64,000 nucleotides of DNA, from NCBI GenBank assembly GCA_963757355.1, contig CAVWRG010000004.1, positions 188,992 to 252,991 of the forward strand. Reading direction: 5' to 3'. Made by a program: the position numbers and the translations under genes. Under the pieces are notes generated by a model. The model worked only from the letters and a program-made list of their open reading frames with translations, was not told the DNA's origin and did no database searches. Below, in pieces: positions 449 through 64,000 of the stretch; positions within the stretch are counted from its first letter, which is position 1; each line of letters starts with the position of its first letter. Source of the stretch: an uncultured Acidobacteriota bacterium. Lineage in GTDB: Bacteria > Acidobacteriota > Vicinamibacteria > Vicinamibacterales > CAVVIG01.

Positions 449-512
449 CGAAAAGGGGCCGTACCCTTTTTCTCCCGATTCAGCTGCGAAAAAGGGGTAC
501 GGCCCCTTTTCG
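449..512. repeat. Family A palindromic doublet (AAAAGGGGCCGTAYCCYTTTT arms), copy 1
   Basis: cgaaaaggggccgtaccctttttc, 15-nt spacer, gaaaaaggggtacggccccttttcg; same element at 18092, 27728 and 35979. Confidence 0.9.
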
Positions 513-519
513 GGGGCGG

Positions 520-1743
520 TTAAGGCGCCATGGCGCCGCGTTCGGCCGTCACGCGCTCGCCGTCGACGAGCTTGTCGACATCGGTCAACGCGACGACCTC
601 GCCCGGCTTGACGCCGGCCGTCACTTCGATGCGATCGCCGACCCGCTCGCCGACCTTCAGCTCGCGGACCGATAGATGATCGCCGTCGACGACGAAGAGG
701 CGGTTGACGCCGTACCGGTACTGAATGGCCGCGTACGACACCGTCAGCACTTGATCGACCTTGTTGCTCTCGATGTGCACCCGCGCGAAGGTTCCCGGTT
801 TGAGCAGCGCGTCGATGTTCGGCACCAGCGCCTCGAAGGGGAACGCGCGCGTCGCCGTGTTCACGGCGGGGCTGATGCGCGAGAGCGTGCCGACGAACTT
901 CCGGTCGGGATACGCGTCGACGTGCAGCTCCACGGGCTGGCCAACCTTCATCCAGGGCGCCATTTTCTCGGGAATCTCCGCCGTGACCTTCAGCGGATCG
1001 ACGCGCACGACACTCATGACGGGCGTCTGGTTCTTCACGAACTGCCCGAGATTCACCAGCCGCTGCGACACGTACCCGTCGAACGGCGCGCGGATATCGG
1101 CGTCGCGCAGCTGGCGATCGGCGAGCTTCGCGCTCGCGTCCGACGCATCGATGTTCGCGCGCAGATTCTTGGCGTTCTGCAGCGCCGTCTCGTAGCCGGC
1201 TTTTTTCGTCTGCAGCATCGCCTCGGCATCATCGAGCCCCTGCTTTGGCAGCAGCTGGCGGCTGTTCAACGCCGCAGCGCGGTCGTACGCCTGCTGCGCC
1301 TGCACCAGCTCCGCCTTCGCCCGCTGGACGTCGGGCGTCATTTCGAAGGCCGGCAGATGCGTCGTGTCGGGGGCGCCGAATTGCGCGAGCGCGCGGTCGA
1401 GCGCCGCCTTCTGCTGGTCGTAGTTGTATTGAAGTTTTTCACGATCGAGTCCGACGAGCACCTGACCCGCCTTCACGCGATCGCCGAGGTCTGTATAGAG
1501 GTGACTGACCCGGCCTTCGGCTTCTGACGAAATCGTCGCCTCGTCGACGGCCGCGAGAGTGCCCACCACCTCGACCGTACGATGCAGCGACTCCTCCCGC
1601 ACCGGTTCGACTTTTACCGACTTCGCCGCTTCGCGGCCGCGCGCCTGCGCGGTGTCGGCTTTCGAACAACCTGTGAGCGCCAGGCTGGCACACGCCGCGG
1701 CCGCCGCGAGTTGCCAGAGATGAGTCAACACGTTTCGACGCAT
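520..1743 (-). CDS. RND efflux periplasmic adaptor (membrane fusion protein), lipoprotein
   Basis: Lipobox LTGC, lipoyl-like GDRVKAGQVL and IRAPFDG motifs, coiled-coil hairpin; start placed at ATG 1743 (MRRNVL). Confidence 0.9.
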   Translation of the reverse strand: MRRNVLTHLWQLAAAAACASLALTGCSKADTAQARGREAAKSVKVEPVREESLHRTVEVVGTLAAVDEATISSEAEGRVSHLYTDLGDRVKAGQVLVGLDREKLQYNYDQQKAALDRALAQFGAPDTTHLPAFEMTPDVQRAKAELVQAQQAYDRAAALNSRQLLPKQGLDDAEAMLQTKKAGYETALQNAKNLRANIDASDASAKLADRQLRDADIRAPFDGYVSQRLVNLGQFVKNQTPVMSVVRVDPLKVTAEIPEKMAPWMKVGQPVELHVDAYPDRKFVGTLSRISPAVNTATRAFPFEALVPNIDALLKPGTFARVHIESNKVDQVLTVSYAAIQYRYGVNRLFVVDGDHLSVRELKVGERVGDRIEVTAGVKPGEVVALTDVDKLVDGERVTAERGAMAP

Positions 1744-1860
1744 AGAGATGACTGGGGCCTTGAACTCGTATAAAGAACGCGCGGGGACTATAAAGAGAGT
1801 ATACGATGCGCGGCTGAGACACCGCCTTGTCATCGTTTGTCTCTCGGCGGGGCCCGGTAA

Positions 1861-3597
1861 TTACTGCGTTCCGCCCGGCTTCGTCGGCGCACCCGGAGCT
1901 GGACGTCCATCGGCTTCGGCGACGAGTTGCTCGGCGGTTCCGAACAAGGGTTCGATGTCCACGGGCACGTCCGCCAGCTTGTCGAGCACCTTCTGCACCG
2001 GCGGCCGGACGACGCCCAGCCGCTCGCCGAGCGCTTTCGATTTCGCGTAGTCGCCCTCGGCCTGAATCGTCATGATCTCGCGCGTCAGCCCCGCGACCGC
2101 GTCCTTGATCTTGGCAGGATTCACCGCAAAGGTGCCGTCGGGGCGGATGGTGAACCCGCCCTGATCGAGCAGGTAGTTCAACTGGATCGCAATCCCACGG
2201 CCGTGCGCTTCGTTGACGCCGAAGCGGATCGACCGGAACGCCGACGCGAGAAACGTTGTGTAGAGCGAGCCCTCGAGCGACTTCGGCATCACGCCCTTGT
2301 CGATCATGTGCTGGATGGCAAAGAGCCCCGAGATGTCGGCCTTTGCTTCCTCGATCGCGCTGTAGGTTTCCTTCATCTCCTGCCGGACGGTCGTCTGGCG
2401 GCCGCCGACAGTAATCGTGTGCGGACCGAGCCCGTGCATCAGCTCGTGCACGACGATGTGCGTGAAGAAGGCGTCGAAGGATACGTCCTTCTGATCCGCC
2501 GCGCTCAGGACCACTTTCGAGATCGGCACCAGCGTCTTCGCGAACTTGGCATCCTGTACGTTCTTCAACATCACGCGCTTGGTGCCCTTTTCGCGGACGA
2601 CCCGCTCATCGTTCGGCAGATTGAACGCCGCGGTCTGAACGCCGCGATTGCCGTCTCCGGCGGCGAAGATCTCGTTGACGACGGTAATCGGCGCCAGCGA
2701 CCCGAGGGAGGGATTCCGGTACTTCGGATCGATCGGCAGGTGGTTCTCGATGTCCTGCAACTCGCCGGCGAGCTTCTGCAGCTTGGCGCTCTCGGCCTCG
2801 TCCTGCACCGTGATGTAGGCCTCGAAGCCCGCCTTGTAGTTGAACAGCTCGTCTTCGTACACCTCGTACGGGCCGATCGTCGGCTCGATCGCCCCTTTCA
2901 GCTCCATCCATGCGACGTCGCTGTCGTAGTAGTCGTTCGTCAGAAACGCGTCGGCGCGCTTGGTGAGGAACGCCTTCAGCGTCGGTTCGGTGGCGAGCGC
3001 CGCCGCCTCGCGCAGCAGCGACGCCGCGAGCGTGAGCTCGCCCTGATACTCGACGTTGTACGGCACGACACGGTAGCCGTTCGCACCGCTGTTGCCGCGG
3101 CGAATCACCGTGAAGAAGCCGGTGGCGGCGGCGCGCTCCGCCTCGGGCAAGGAGCGGACCCACGTGTCGAGATTGGCTTTCGACGCCTCCGGCGGGTAGA
3201 AGTTCGCGCCGGCCGGCTTCGGGGGCGCGCCAGGCACGAACGCCTCGTTGTGATCGAGCCGCGACCAGGGGCCTTTGTTGATCAGAAAGTAGTGCAGCCG
3301 CGCGCGCCCGGCAGCGGACTGATCCTTGACCAGGTCGAGCAGCATCGCGTCGTTGCCGGCCCAGACCTGACGGAGAAACAGCGCGTCGATGATCTTCGAC
3401 GCGGCCACCAGCTTCGCCAGCACGCGGCGATCGGCGGCCGGCAGCGCCGAGAGATCGGCGCCGATGTCGGTCGGCGCAAAACGTGCAGCCATGCGCTGCA
3501 GCGTCACGGTATCGGGCACACGCGCCTCCTGGGCCGACAGCGACAACGCCGCTGCCGCCATGCAGCCAGCCGCAGCAGCGACTTTGAGGTGAGTCAT
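1861..3597 (-). CDS. Secreted M49-like (dipeptidyl-peptidase III family) metallopeptidase
   Basis: HELMH zinc motif followed by EEAKAD; AFNLPND motif; signal peptide; -10-like TACAAT 6 nt upstream of ATG 3597. Confidence 0.8.
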   Translation of the reverse strand: MTHLKVAAAAGCMAAAALSLSAQEARVPDTVTLQRMAARFAPTDIGADLSALPAADRRVLAKLVAASKIIDALFLRQVWAGNDAMLLDLVKDQSAAGRARLHYFLINKGPWSRLDHNEAFVPGAPPKPAGANFYPPEASKANLDTWVRSLPEAERAAATGFFTVIRRGNSGANGYRVVPYNVEYQGELTLAASLLREAAALATEPTLKAFLTKRADAFLTNDYYDSDVAWMELKGAIEPTIGPYEVYEDELFNYKAGFEAYITVQDEAESAKLQKLAGELQDIENHLPIDPKYRNPSLGSLAPITVVNEIFAAGDGNRGVQTAAFNLPNDERVVREKGTKRVMLKNVQDAKFAKTLVPISKVVLSAADQKDVSFDAFFTHIVVHELMHGLGPHTITVGGRQTTVRQEMKETYSAIEEAKADISGLFAIQHMIDKGVMPKSLEGSLYTTFLASAFRSIRFGVNEAHGRGIAIQLNYLLDQGGFTIRPDGTFAVNPAKIKDAVAGLTREIMTIQAEGDYAKSKALGERLGVVRPPVQKVLDKLADVPVDIEPLFGTAEQLVAEADGRPAPGAPTKPGGTQ

Positions 3598-3623
3598 GCG
3601 CGTATTGTAACGATGTTCTGCGG

Positions 3624-3695
3624 GACTGGAGACTGAAGCGGGCAAACTGACGACTGACGACTGGACTGGCGACTGAAGACCGGCGACTGACGACT
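3624..3695. repeat. Tandem heptamer array (GACTGNN)n
   Basis: gactgga gactgaa ... gactgac gactgac ... gactggc gactgaa gaccggc gactgac; related arms occur inside xseA. Confidence 0.8.
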
Positions 3696-3696
3696 T

Positions 3697-63114: not shown

Positions 63115-63197
63115 ACCACGGAGGACACGGAGGACACAGAGGTCGGAACGTACAGGGAAATGGATTGAACCTCCGTGTCCCCCGTGTCCTCTGTGGT
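63115..63197. repeat. 83-nt element: 29-nt GGACACRGA arms around a 25-nt core, second copy
   Basis: accacggaggacacggaggacacagaggt, 25 nt, acctccgtgtcccccgtgtcctctgtggt. Confidence 0.9.
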
Positions 63198-63225
63198 AGC
63201 CAGGTTCAGCGAAAAGAAAAAGACG

Positions 63226-63423
63226 ATGCCGAAGATCAAGACACACCGCGGCGCCGCGAAGCGCTTCAAGCGGACGAAGAACGGGAAATTTCTGCGGGGC
63301 AGCGCGTTCAAGCAGCACATCCTGAGCAGCAAGAGCACCAAGCGCAAGCGCAAGCTGCGCGGGACCACGACGGTCGCGAAAGTGGACCAGGCGAAGCTCG
63401 CCCGGATGCTGCCTTACAAATAA
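63226..63423 (+). CDS. rpmI: 50S ribosomal protein L35
   Basis: [18 protein letters not shown]. Confidence 0.97.
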
Positions 63424-63430
63424 GGCACTC

Positions 63431-63516
63431 GGGATTCGGGATTTGGGATTCGGGATTCGGGATTTGCGTGTTCGGCTTTAGCCGGACGTGATCGTAGTGT
63501 CCGGCTTCAGCCGGAC
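63431..63516. repeat. GGGATTY array plus two tandem GTAG-type REPs
   Basis: Five heptamers, then gcgtgttcggctttagccggac and GTAGTGTCCGGCTTCAGCCGGAC; a related copy lies at 58075-58097. Confidence 0.85.
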
Positions 63517-63533
63517 CTGTAGGAGAGATCGAA

Positions 63534-63914
63534 ATGCCGCGTGTGAAAAGAGGAACGGTCCGGCGCGCCAAGCGGAAGAAGCTGCTCGGGCTGGCGAAGG
63601 GCTACTACGCCAACAAGAGCAAGCTGTATCGCGCCGCGAAAGAGTCGGTGGACACGGCGCTCAAGTACGCGTTCGTCGGCCGCCGCCGCAAGAAGCGCGA
63701 TTTCCGCCGGCTGTGGGTCGTGCGGATCAACGCCGCCGCGCGCGAGCACGGCCTCACCTACGGACAGTTCATCAACGGGTTGAAGAACGCCGGTGTGACG
63801 CTCGATCGTAAGAGCCTGTCGGAGCTCGCCATCGGGAGCCCGGCCGCGTTCGGCACGCTCGCCCAGCAGGCCAAGGCGGCGGCGAAGACGAACGTCCGCT
63901 CCGCCGCGCGTTAG
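63534..63914 (+). CDS. rplT: 50S ribosomal protein L20
   Basis: [31 protein letters not shown] aggag. Confidence 0.97.
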
Positions 63915-64000
63915 GCCCATTTCCGCTTCATCACACGCGACCCCGGCCAACCCTTCATCACGAAGTCGCGAAGGGCGCGAAGGGCACGAAGACTGTTTTG

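Follow-up and report, generated by a model that had tools for sequence, protein, structure and literature searches.

Most sites of tandemly repeated short units in a 64,000-nucleotide (nt) stretch of DNA from an uncultured Acidobacteriota bacterium (order Vicinamibacterales; GenBank assembly GCA_963757355.1, contig CAVWRG010000004.1, forward-strand positions 188,992 to 252,991; hereafter the window) are probably gene-less copies, similar to MITEs (miniature inverted-repeat transposable elements), or one-armed remains, of two kinds of small hairpin cassette. Inverted arms built from such units enclose small genes, the family of the gene goes with the family of the arm, gene-bearing and gene-less copies have ends in common, and the contents of gene junctions turn over between close relatives. 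We infer that the encoded proteins mobilize the elements.

The gene-bearing cassettes lie outside the window. Profile searches of the whole source genome (G000; 6.55 Mb, 100% complete) found six genes for four-helix-bundle proteins (TIGR02436 / PF05635) and three for GxxExxY proteins (TIGR04256 / PF13366), all nine on other contigs or elsewhere on C4, the contig of the window, as an initial annotation of the window had anticipated in stating that it contained no such gene. Inverted tandem-unit arms enclose every one of the nine. At a threshold of at least 18, the inverted-flank score singled out 9/9 cassette genes and 4 of 1,477 controls, that is, other genes of 240 to 600 nt; the top-scoring controls were housekeeping genes (rpsJ, frr, and an anti-sigma factor gene), each flanked by two separate junction hairpins. 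Furthermore, gene family and arm family correspond. Arms of CACRGAGG/CACGAAGG (CACRRAG) type flank every one of the three GxxExxY genes and none of the six four-helix-bundle genes. The latter have six different units, GGGCAGGTA, GGGATTY, TGGTCATT, GGTGCCAG, GGTGAWTT, and GAATTAG, all of which recur as array families in the source genome. The initial annotation had regarded the window repeats as empty derivatives of mobile cassettes, had named these two gene families as candidates, and had named, as support to be looked for, enrichment of one small gene family within the arms of one repeat family. That correspondence is borne out in the source genome, in its relatives, and in other phyla, and the enclosure of both named gene families agrees with the idea of empty derivatives; mobilization is the step that we infer, and four repeat families are without a gene-bearing copy.

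The same arrangement recurs among relatives, for which we used 31 genomes of the order. Four-helix-bundle genes are present in 24 of these and GxxExxY genes in 17. The four-helix-bundle loci of relatives have tandem heptamer to nonamer arms, with an inverted flank match of at least 14 in 23 of 30, and nearly each has its own unit; in G013, tandem-unit arms occur at 10 of 11 further loci of this kind, with units that are all different. Both flanks were available for 28 GxxExxY loci, of which 26 score at least 14; C[AG]C[AG][AG]AG-type arms could be seen by eye in 27. Arm unit also follows protein sequence. In between-genome comparisons of related genomes, where pairs are not independent of one another, units agree within one mismatch for 7 of 14 pairs of four-helix-bundle proteins with at least 55% identity, as opposed to 7 of 294 pairs below 45%. 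In several similar pairs the gene alone matches and the flanks are non-syntenic, for example GGGATTY in G000 and GGGATTA in G010, or the GCTGGAG loci of G015 and G001; a GGGCAGG-type clade in G000, G005, G013, and G017 is likewise without matching flanks. Among the 31 genomes, the GGGATT-type protein clade was found in G000 and G010, both of which belong to the four genomes with at least 20 GGGATTN arrays (G010 has 26 matches to three consecutive GGGATTN units). In the remaining 27 genomes, with 0 to 7 such matches, the GGGATTY-type protein was not found. Given small numbers, related genomes, and two incomplete assemblies, this co-occurrence of GGGATTY arrays with their cognate protein clade is suggestive.

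Outside the order, the LGPGLLESxY motif of GxxExxY proteins is estimated to occur in ~22,000 stretches across the species-level genome set. We examined the best 80 loci among the matches listed in species-representative genomes, which span many bacterial phyla and Archaea at 47 to 62% identity. In these best 80 listed loci, inverted flank matches of at least 14 occur in 68 and direct matches in 25, and 67 have at least two CRCRRAG motifs per side, 54 of them in purine-first order only, compared with 2 of 74 control windows placed 350 to 600 nt away. The outer end of the cassette in the same best 80 listed loci is typically TT[CA]ACC[AG]C[AG][AG]AG. When this end motif plus a second unit was sought in five other-phyla genomes, there were 23 to 38 matches per genome and 0 for the reversed control, and facing pairs of the end motif stood either 60 to 130 nt or ~440 to 580 nt apart. 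For the four-helix-bundle branch, heptamer or octamer arms occur at 13 of 23 loci with both flanks from one genome each of Nostoc, Coleofasciculus, and Flavobacteriaceae; five weak matches in Polyangiaceae have no such arms. The closest solved relative of the GGGATTY-armed protein is XCC0516, a four-helix-bundle protein of Xanthomonas campestris (E 2.3e-20). Rehm et al. 2015 (PMC4692102) list, in their supplement 2, a GGGAATC array that overlaps the start of XCC0516, and none on the other side of the gene; this published link was not interpreted as such.

The two encoded proteins are of different kinds. The GxxExxY protein, 115 residues long, matches PF13366 (E 2.5e-40) and TIGR04256 (120 to 142 bits), and E22, D62, and K74 are invariant among 15 sequences. 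Its AlphaFold2 model (predicted local distance difference test score, 94.9) has a minimal PD-(D/E)XK fold that, among solved structures, comes nearest to Cas4, lambda exonuclease, AdnA, and Hjc, at weak E values of at least 4e-3; by sequence, no relative with a solved structure was found. Profile and model together place it as a predicted nuclease of the PD-(D/E)XK superfamily. The relevant passage of PMC3424549 lists PF13366 as a family without a known function that has been transferred multiple times between Bacteria and Archaea. The four-helix-bundle proteins match PF05635 (E 1e-27), and their matches to the bAvd-like family PF22296 (E 7.5e-6 and 2.9e-4) fall below the family cut-off.

Genome-wide, the arrays have a consistent layout. 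Counted from at least 2.5 copies upward, there are 413 arrays of period 7, 392 of period 8, and 855 of period 9, of which 59%, 73%, and 51%, respectively, are intergenic, compared with 9 to 25% for periods 5, 6, 10, and 11 in a genome where our own rough gene call (5,506 genes) leaves 14.4% of the DNA non-coding. The 971 intergenic arrays are spread over 704 gene junctions. When junctions with gaps above 30 nt were scored, arrays were present in 499 of 2,349 co-directional and 152 of 667 convergent junctions (21 to 23%) and in 53 of 801 divergent junctions (6.6%), with a median of 14 nt from the upstream stop codon to the start of the first array. Clustering yielded about ten unit families, the biggest being the CACRRAG-type 8- and 9-mers (~370 arrays), GGTGAWTT (148), GGGATTY (100), GGGCAGGNN (55), and GGGATCA (49). 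At junctions with two arrays of opposite sense, the purine-rich arm leads in 181 and trails in 5. Arrays that appear to be single often have a degenerate partner, which is on the side predicted by this rule in 93 and 82 cases and on the other side in 1 and 5. This purine-first order is identical when read on either strand, and it matches the "convergent" pairs described in Rehm et al. 2015 (PMC4692102). Inverted neighbors of the same family are less than 60 nt apart in 155 of 199 cases; eight inverted same-family pairs are separated by 300 to 1,000 nt, and six of these enclose small open reading frames (ORFs).

The link between gene-bearing and gene-less copies is clearest for the CACRRAG family. 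By a strict pattern, we collected 170 CACRRAG hairpins from the source genome, 124 of which span 60 to 100 nt. They have the consensus TTCA[T/C]CAC(RRAG) at both ends, the same cassette end as in other phyla, and the GxxExxY cassettes themselves end in TTCACCAC..GTGGTGAA. One subfamily, CACGAAG, can be aligned over its full length in 21 copies (48 to 100 nt, mostly 85 to 100 nt), with mostly four units per arm and, often, a GTACAA-like motif in the loop. Gene-less CACRRAG hairpins most likely derive from GxxExxY cassettes. The preference for four units is shared with strict GGGATTY arrays, where 90 of 121 have exactly four, and passages of PMC4692102 and PMC2700814 report it for the arrays of Xanthomonas and Geobacter; because it also occurs in the CACGAAG subfamily, which is without G-tracts, an explanation by G-quadruplexes falls short. 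Some elements enclose neither a short loop nor a gene. A structured core of 160 nt, found in the window at 53424-53624, has 22 to 26 copies in the genome (e.g., C3:292352-292512 and C2:1489677-1489831) that are 70 to 83% identical, lie in both orientations, and always stand within CACRGAG arms, with purine-type motifs always on the left and pyrimidine-type motifs on the right. It folds into an outer stem of 17 base pairs and three hairpins (-134 kcal/mol) and has no match in Rfam at gathering thresholds.

In the window itself, Tandem Repeats Finder (TRF) listed 84 rows, the majority of period 7, 8, or 9 and at gene junctions. Reading the junction sequences directly and naming genes by NCBIfam, we recognized ~28 sites of three structural kinds: tandem-unit inverted-arm hairpins (e.g., 46056-46163, 51106-51200, and 63109-63192), one-armed arrays (3625, 11608, 14298, 38861, and 57917), which do not fold and have z scores near 0, and fixed palindromes, which resemble repetitive extragenic palindromes (REPs). 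The repeat families that the initial annotation reported are real: five of them have 5 to 13 matches where 100 dinucleotide-preserving shuffles gave 0.00 to 0.02, namely two consecutive GGGATTY units (13 against 0.00), GGCAGGNNNGGCWGG (12 against 0.02), CACRRAGNNCACRRAG (9 against 0.00), two GGTRARTT units (5 against 0.00), and three GACTGNN units with at most one mismatch (6 against 0.00). Paired sites fold at -40 to -61 kcal/mol (z -4.5 to -8.8), and none of the 200 shuffles made for each was as stable. Rfam searches of the whole window at gathering thresholds returned tRNA-Val alone. Between 44 and 64 kb, the consensus terminator fitted solely the inner part of one array hairpin (45003-45021), and a T-run sought after the large hairpins was not found there; the large hairpins are therefore not consensus intrinsic terminators. 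The tandem-unit sites are as follows, with strand where one applies:

3625..3696, plus strand: one-armed GACTGNN heptamer array of ~7 units, adjoining the stop of a minus-strand YqgE/AlgH gene (z +0.6)
11608..11658, plus strand: one-armed GGGATTY x4 and GGGGAGATTC x3, reaching the start of an ADOP permease gene (z -0.18)
14298..14353, plus strand: one-armed GGGATTY array of ~8 units between two ADOP permease genes
28583..28640, plus strand: GGCAGG-type 18-mer x2, then a weak C-rich partner (TRF and sequence reading)
34515..34589, minus strand: CCCTACCTG x8 (GGGCAGGTA family, C-rich strand), an in-frame C-terminal tail of an M16 peptidase gene
38861..38890, plus strand: one-armed GGGATTY x4 at a divergent junction
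40930..41011: GGGCAGG-family hairpin, a G-rich arm and then GCCCAACCT x5, between nfo and gatC
44966..45062: stack of GATCAGG x2.7 and then a CACGAAG-armed hairpin (-39.7 kcal/mol, z -4.6)
46056..46163: GGGCAGGA nonamer hairpin, 3' of the dnaK stop codon (-60.9 kcal/mol, z -5.6)
48174..48360: arms of GGCAGGTAG x2.7 and CTGCCCTTC x7, ~100 nt apart, in the divergent dnaK/hsp20 region
49689..49724, minus strand: one-armed GACTGNN array between a TIGR00282-family gene and the conserved part of xseA
51106..51200: CACRGAGGA hairpin with three units per arm and ends CCACCAC..GTGGT at the xseA/xseB junction (-60.3 kcal/mol, z -6.1)
52470..52631: CACAAAGGA arms with a 107-nt loop between ispA and tlyA
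53398..53690: CACAGAG arms round the 160-nt cloverleaf-like core, then a stacked CTTTGTGTC x3 arm, between tlyA and nadK
54593..54695, minus strand: stack of TCCTTTGTG x3 and AATCCCG x4 at the convergent nadK/M20 peptidase junction
56254..56362, minus strand: CCCTCCAGC x12, an in-frame C-terminal tail of MltG
57378..57479, minus strand: CCGCCCCTC-type nonamer array within the N-terminal part of the MltG ORF
57917..57972, minus strand: AAYTYACC octamer array of the GGTGAWTT family, one-armed and without a fold, at the junction of ruvX with an M23 peptidase gene
63109..63192: CACGGAGGA hairpin between infC and rpmI (-43.3 kcal/mol, z -4.5)
63429..63525, plus strand: GGGATTY x5 and then GTAG-type REP-like hairpins between rpmI and rplT
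63967..63991, plus strand: CGCGAAGGG x2.8 (CRCRRAG family), 3' of the rplT stop codon at the end of the window

The hairpins at 51106..51200 and 63109..63192 are gene-less elements of the GxxExxY type. NCBIfam matches include the acidobacterial marker families ADOP and padR_acidobact and agree with the operons that the initial annotation had named, infC-rpmI-rplT and xseA-xseB-ispA-tlyA-nadK, and the stacking of different families at one site was confirmed at 44966 (GATCAGG beside the CACGAAG hairpin), 54593/54668 (TCCTTTGTG and AATCCCG), and 63431 (GGGATTY beside GTAG-type hairpins). Its placement of the repeats at stop and start junctions describes most sites, which are intergenic, but misses nonamer arrays that run in frame at gene ends. 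These arrays, together with one 48-nt tandem repeat, form N- or C-terminal extensions of MltG, LpxB (30920-31058), and the M16 peptidase. The in-frame array tails of conserved enzymes begin beyond the ends of the family profiles: the NCBIfam match stops at residue 450 of 483 in the M16 peptidase and at residue 440 of 498 in MltG. The xseA profile match begins at residue 49 of the ORF as called. The GGGATTY arrays at 11608-11660 and 14298-14352 each precede one of the tandem ADOP permease paralogues in a near-identical start context (..GGGATTTGRCCATGCGTGAG), and the array may have been copied along with the permease gene.

Junction contents change quickly between congeners. Between G000 and G002, which are ~92% identical in the window region, we compared 184 orthologous junctions: 108 are array-free in both, 31 have a family in common, 7 have different families, and arrays occur in one genome alone at 21 (G002) and 17 (G000) junctions, counts in which weak two-copy rows include some noise. 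One junction that is 21 nt long in the source genome (G000:C4:87886-87906) measures 650 nt in its G002:C2 orthologue, which contains an entire four-helix-bundle cassette, its arms made of GGGTAATY units. At another site, the loop of a TTCATCACGAAG element in G000 has a second element, one that bears the core, nested inside it, and the TTCATCACGAAG element stands alone in G002. Families have been swapped between genomes at nadK/M20, nfo/gatC, rpmI/rplT, and ruvX/M23. An AATTGCT array takes the place of the source-genome stack at nadK/M20 in G002, and nfo/gatC has a different hairpin and a CACRRAG arm there; rpmI/rplT has GGGATTY x3 in G002, GCTAGRG units in G001, and a GAAGTNC hairpin in G003; the ruvX/M23 array has one extra unit in G002 and is replaced by a AAATCCTC array in G001. 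The GACTGNN array at 3625 is missing from the orthologous G002 junction (60 nt, versus 135 nt in the source genome). Elsewhere the elements have been altered in place. In G002, the 44966 stack is kept with a different copy number, the hairpin after dnaK is of the same type as at 46056 and far shorter, the element at 48174 has a GACTGNN array inside its loop, and the ispA/tlyA junction has other arm variants and a 30-nt loop. The infC/rpmI hairpin is also present in G002 and G001, and the spacer in G003 is 17 nt. At xseA/xseB the two arms have changed jointly, from 3+3 units in G000 to 2+2 in G002. The 160-nt core at tlyA/nadK is inverted in G002 with its arms unchanged, and so, in a relative, is a GGGCAGGTA-armed gene with respect to its syntenic flanks. 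The initial annotation had held that its proposal would be undermined by arms that never enclose ORFs, that are fixed at orthologous positions, or that are simple terminators; in fact the arms enclose ORFs, junctions differ in content between congeners, and the large hairpins have no T-run.

How such elements might work can be outlined from these patterns. A cassette would consist of two inverted arms, each of two to eight tandem 7- to 9-nt units (four being commonest), and, between them, a short loop, the structured 160-nt core, or one small gene. CRCRRAG arms would be served by the 115-residue GxxExxY (PF13366) predicted nuclease, and GGGATTY, GGTGAWTT, GGGCAGGTA, and other arms by Avd-like PF05635 proteins, with one unit per paralogue. 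Cassettes would reach new junctions mostly just 3' of stop codons or in the loops of existing hairpins, and would insert without target duplication. Each encoded protein may recognize the units repeated in its own arms. The nuclease would cleave at, or close to, arms that have adopted a hairpin or cruciform structure, and the four-helix-bundle protein could lend specificity to an enzyme of the host. Once an element has inserted, slippage would alter the arms, and recombination from arm to arm would flip the loop. On a broader view, which is possible but which we hold with some doubt, the two kinds would be branches of one undescribed, prokaryote-wide mobile class. Its members would be cassettes of ~450 to 650 nt with protein-specific 7- to 9-nt arms, excised and inserted through hairpin or cruciform DNA, without target duplication, by a PD-(D/E)XK nuclease or by an Avd-like protein with a host enzyme. 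Their gene-less offspring would be the source of the heptamers of Xanthomonas, cyanobacteria, and Geobacter, of ORF-less hairpins at operon junctions, and of rRNA intervening sequences.

Several results weigh against descent of the window sites from such cassettes. No end motif beyond the unit, or part of it, was found on gene-less arrays of the four-helix-bundle type, so that in these families the unit is all that gene-less and gene-bearing copies have in common. When the nine cargo regions were compared with the genome by blastn, each matched itself alone; therefore, the gene-less copies are not recent deletion derivatives. Direct repeats of 2 to 8 nt at offsets of -2 to +3, sought as target-site duplications around the 33 clean-ended elements of the 170 CACRRAG hairpins, showed no excess over shuffled pairings. 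No known transposase was recognized in the cassettes, and no reverse transcriptase (RVT_1) was found in the 100%-complete source genome. Protein and array do not always coincide, either: searches of G002 (111 array matches, 80% complete) and G030 (29 array matches, 87% complete) yielded no GGGATTY-type protein, and in the source genome no gene-bearing copy was found for the families GGGATCA, GACTGNN, CAGATTT, and GCTGGGT. In G013, three consecutive NTTAGGG units, a reversed control pattern that proved to be a telomere-like heptamer family, match 33 times, and NTTAGGG arms occur on 0 of 13 four-helix-bundle genes. Array load was weakly linked to the number of cargo genes in 200-kb samples from six relatives. 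G013 has 15 cargo genes yet 8.5 arrays per 100 kb, and the density is 3.5 and 5.5 in two genomes that have neither gene, as compared with 17.5 to 28 in G000. Finally, some sites differ between congeners as slippage would have it, with growth in situ from one unit (G000:C4:87142, outside the window, has one unit where G002 has six) and, at another site, drift of the unit within a single array. Retro-mobility by a pair of Avd and reverse transcriptase was also considered and was set aside, as no RVT_1 match was found in the genome.

Three other explanations each fit part of these data, but none fits the conserved arms of GxxExxY genes across phyla. The first takes the small genes to be secondary invaders that home into the loops of pre-existing hairpins, the arrays having spread or arisen in some other way and the proteins being unconnected with the gene-less copies. 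This could account for the nesting of one element in another's loop and for the GACTGNN array inside a GGGCAGG hairpin loop in G002, as well as for array families without a gene-bearing copy, array-rich genomes without the cognate protein, and an array load that does not follow gene number. Yet homing of this sort would not by itself place CRCRRAG arms at 67 of the best 80 listed GxxExxY loci in many phyla, whatever other repeats the host has, nor the cassette end motif on gene-less hairpins, and it does not explain why a four-helix-bundle clade tracks its unit in non-syntenic places. In addition, each of the six four-helix-bundle genes lies in a different array family, and three of these families are rare (6 to 11 arrays), a distribution unlike that of random homing into the commonest hairpins. 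We therefore regard secondary homing as unlikely.

According to the second explanation, to which we give little credence, the arrays are working sites of the host, either for binding by the encoded proteins or by nucleoid proteins or as RNA hairpins that end or stabilize transcripts, and the small genes regulate themselves, making up a regulon and not a mobile element. The position just 3' of stop codons, the avoidance of divergent promoter regions, the fixed layout of four units, and the high stability of the hairpins would all suit such a role; some hairpins, such as that at infC/rpmI, are kept in three genomes, and the Geobacter arrays are interpreted as sites for integration host factor (IHF) and HU in passages of PMC2700814. 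Nevertheless, a working site would not be expected to hold different families at one junction in genomes ~92% identical, to come and go without a functional theme, or to be translated in frame within genes, and the large hairpins have no T-run. Nor does a host regulon sit easily with protein identities of 47 to 62% between Bacteria and Archaea in the best 80 listed loci and the multiple transfers noted in the passage of PMC3424549. The third explanation, that the arrays are simple-sequence repeats made by local polymerase slippage, with incidental potential for G-quadruplexes or hairpins and a chance link to genes, draws on the copy-number changes between congeners (one unit to six, unit drift) and on the slippage and G-quadruplex interpretation in parts of PMC4692102, but is highly improbable, and as a sole cause contradicted, in view of one identical unit at 100 or more junctions, defined element ends, the four-unit preference of the CACGAAG subfamily without G-tracts, the strict arm order (181 versus 5), and the enclosure of 9/9 genes versus 4 of 1,477 controls. 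Slippage stands as a process that reshapes arms after insertion.

Descent from mobile cassettes invites comparison with systems that are already described. The 23S rRNA genes of some bacteria contain intervening sequences (IVSs), and ORF-less IVSs exist. As described in passages of PMC4990558 for Coxiella and Leptospira, the IVS has a PF05635 ORF (S23p) in the loop of an inverted-repeat stem, as the cassettes do, and it is called selfish and is sporadically distributed. However, IVSs lie within rRNA helices (helix 25 or 45 of 23S rRNA) and are excised by RNase III, whereas the cassettes lie between protein genes or at their ends and have arms of tandem 7- to 9-nt units, many unit families, and hundreds of gene-less copies. 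The GGGAATC and GGGGA(C/T)T heptamers of Xanthomonas and Nostoc, as portrayed in parts of PMC4692102, likewise have 7-nt units, a preference for four of them, and convergent inverted pairs, and they too are intergenic, near the upstream stop codon, scarce at divergent junctions, and variable in length between species. The passages concerned describe one unit type per genome, forming G-quadruplexes and of unknown function, and name no associated gene. The source genome differs in having at least ten unit families, some without G-tracts, and arms that enclose two gene families. Paired tandem hepta- and octanucleotides of Geobacter metallireducens (passages of PMC2700814) are similar in comprising several families with four to five units of 7 to 8 nt, mostly in inverted pairs, which are intergenic or sometimes intragenic and are missing from a sister species; they are read there as sites of global regulators of the IHF/HU type, with no link to a cargo gene stated in those passages. 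The arrays as such are thus already published (PMC4692102 and PMC2700814), in contrast to the initial annotation, which had presented them as a candidate for an undescribed element system. In a literature search that did not extend to closed supplements, subscription journals, or the family notes of databases, we found no paper tying 7- to 9-nt arrays to GxxExxY or four-helix-bundle genes.

Likeness to other mobile elements is partial. MITEs and the REP-derived hairpins (REPINs) that depend on REP-associated tyrosine transposases (RAYTs) also consist of short junction hairpins in many copies along with a few gene-bearing copies that have the same repeats. The CACRRAG hairpins resemble MITEs in their terminal inverted repeats, small size, many copies, and a longer gene-bearing element with the same ends, and depart from them in showing no target-site duplication. 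The cassettes further differ from both systems in having internally tandem arms and, in place of a Y1 HUH or DDE transposase, a 115-residue PD-(D/E)XK predicted nuclease or a non-enzymatic four-helix bundle as cargo. The four-helix-bundle proteins match the Avd protein of diversity-generating retroelements (PF22296) weakly, below cut-off; with no reverse transcriptase found in the source genome and no template or variable repeat seen, the cassettes are not such retroelements. Like simple-sequence repeats, the arrays change copy number at fixed loci (xseA/xseB, rpmI/rplT, and G000:C4:87142), but their shared ends, four-unit mode, and enclosure of 9/9 genes do not accord with independent local origins.

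The initial annotation had also counted two palindrome families, A and B, and GTAG-type repeats in one system with the tandem-unit families. This part of its proposal must be set aside: they are separate, REP-like fixed palindromes without tandem-unit arms. In the window, they occur at these sites:

441..519: doublet of family A, in which two palindromic units of 23 nt, AAAAGGGG..CCCCTTTT, lie head to head (-45.6 kcal/mol, z -4.8)
5882..5967: GTAG-type REP-like hairpins between queG and acnA (regular-expression match at 5897)
10325..10395: family B long hairpin with AAAAGGGGACGGGAGTCGTTT arms, 3' of the amt stop codon (-53.9 kcal/mol, z -8.75)
19905..20008: two family B half copies at a convergent junction
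27711..27791: family A doublet between an opuBC-type permease gene and proV
35958..36050: family A doublet (sequence reading and regular expression)

Family A has ~140 to 150 units genome-wide, which contain A- and T-runs, and family B has 32 units; GTAG-type hairpins are also found at window position 63470. Three regions of the genome match the Y1 transposase family PF01797 (C3:321800-322120, C3:337367-337708, and C1:1007038-1007286), one of which has inverted flanks with a score of 17.5, and these three genes are candidate RAYT-type mobilizers of the GTAG-type hairpins. Matches to the regular expression for the family A doublet also occur at ~18095-18160, within a protein-coding ORF (17135-18925). 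Upstream of the ammonium transporter gene, the divergent acnA/amt region has an AT-rich stretch at 8780-8900, and several TGCA(C/T)A(A/T)(A/T)TTGC-like repeats within it may be binding sites of a regulator.

Arrays of 7- to 9-nt units have long been reported as curiosities, whether as G-quadruplex repeats in Xanthomonas and Nostoc or as putative regulator sites in Geobacter, and the GxxExxY and four-helix-bundle genes are two very common orphan families. The link between array and gene makes the arms candidates for sites of recognition and the proteins candidates for factors that cut or confer specificity, and it presents the whole as a candidate for a minimal selfish cassette, with a design akin to that of rRNA intervening sequences. 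In the source genome, the elements occupy a fifth of co-directional and convergent junctions, they stand inside essential operons, and they have extended reading frames. Because they change fast between close relatives, they affect annotation, operon prediction, and strain typing.

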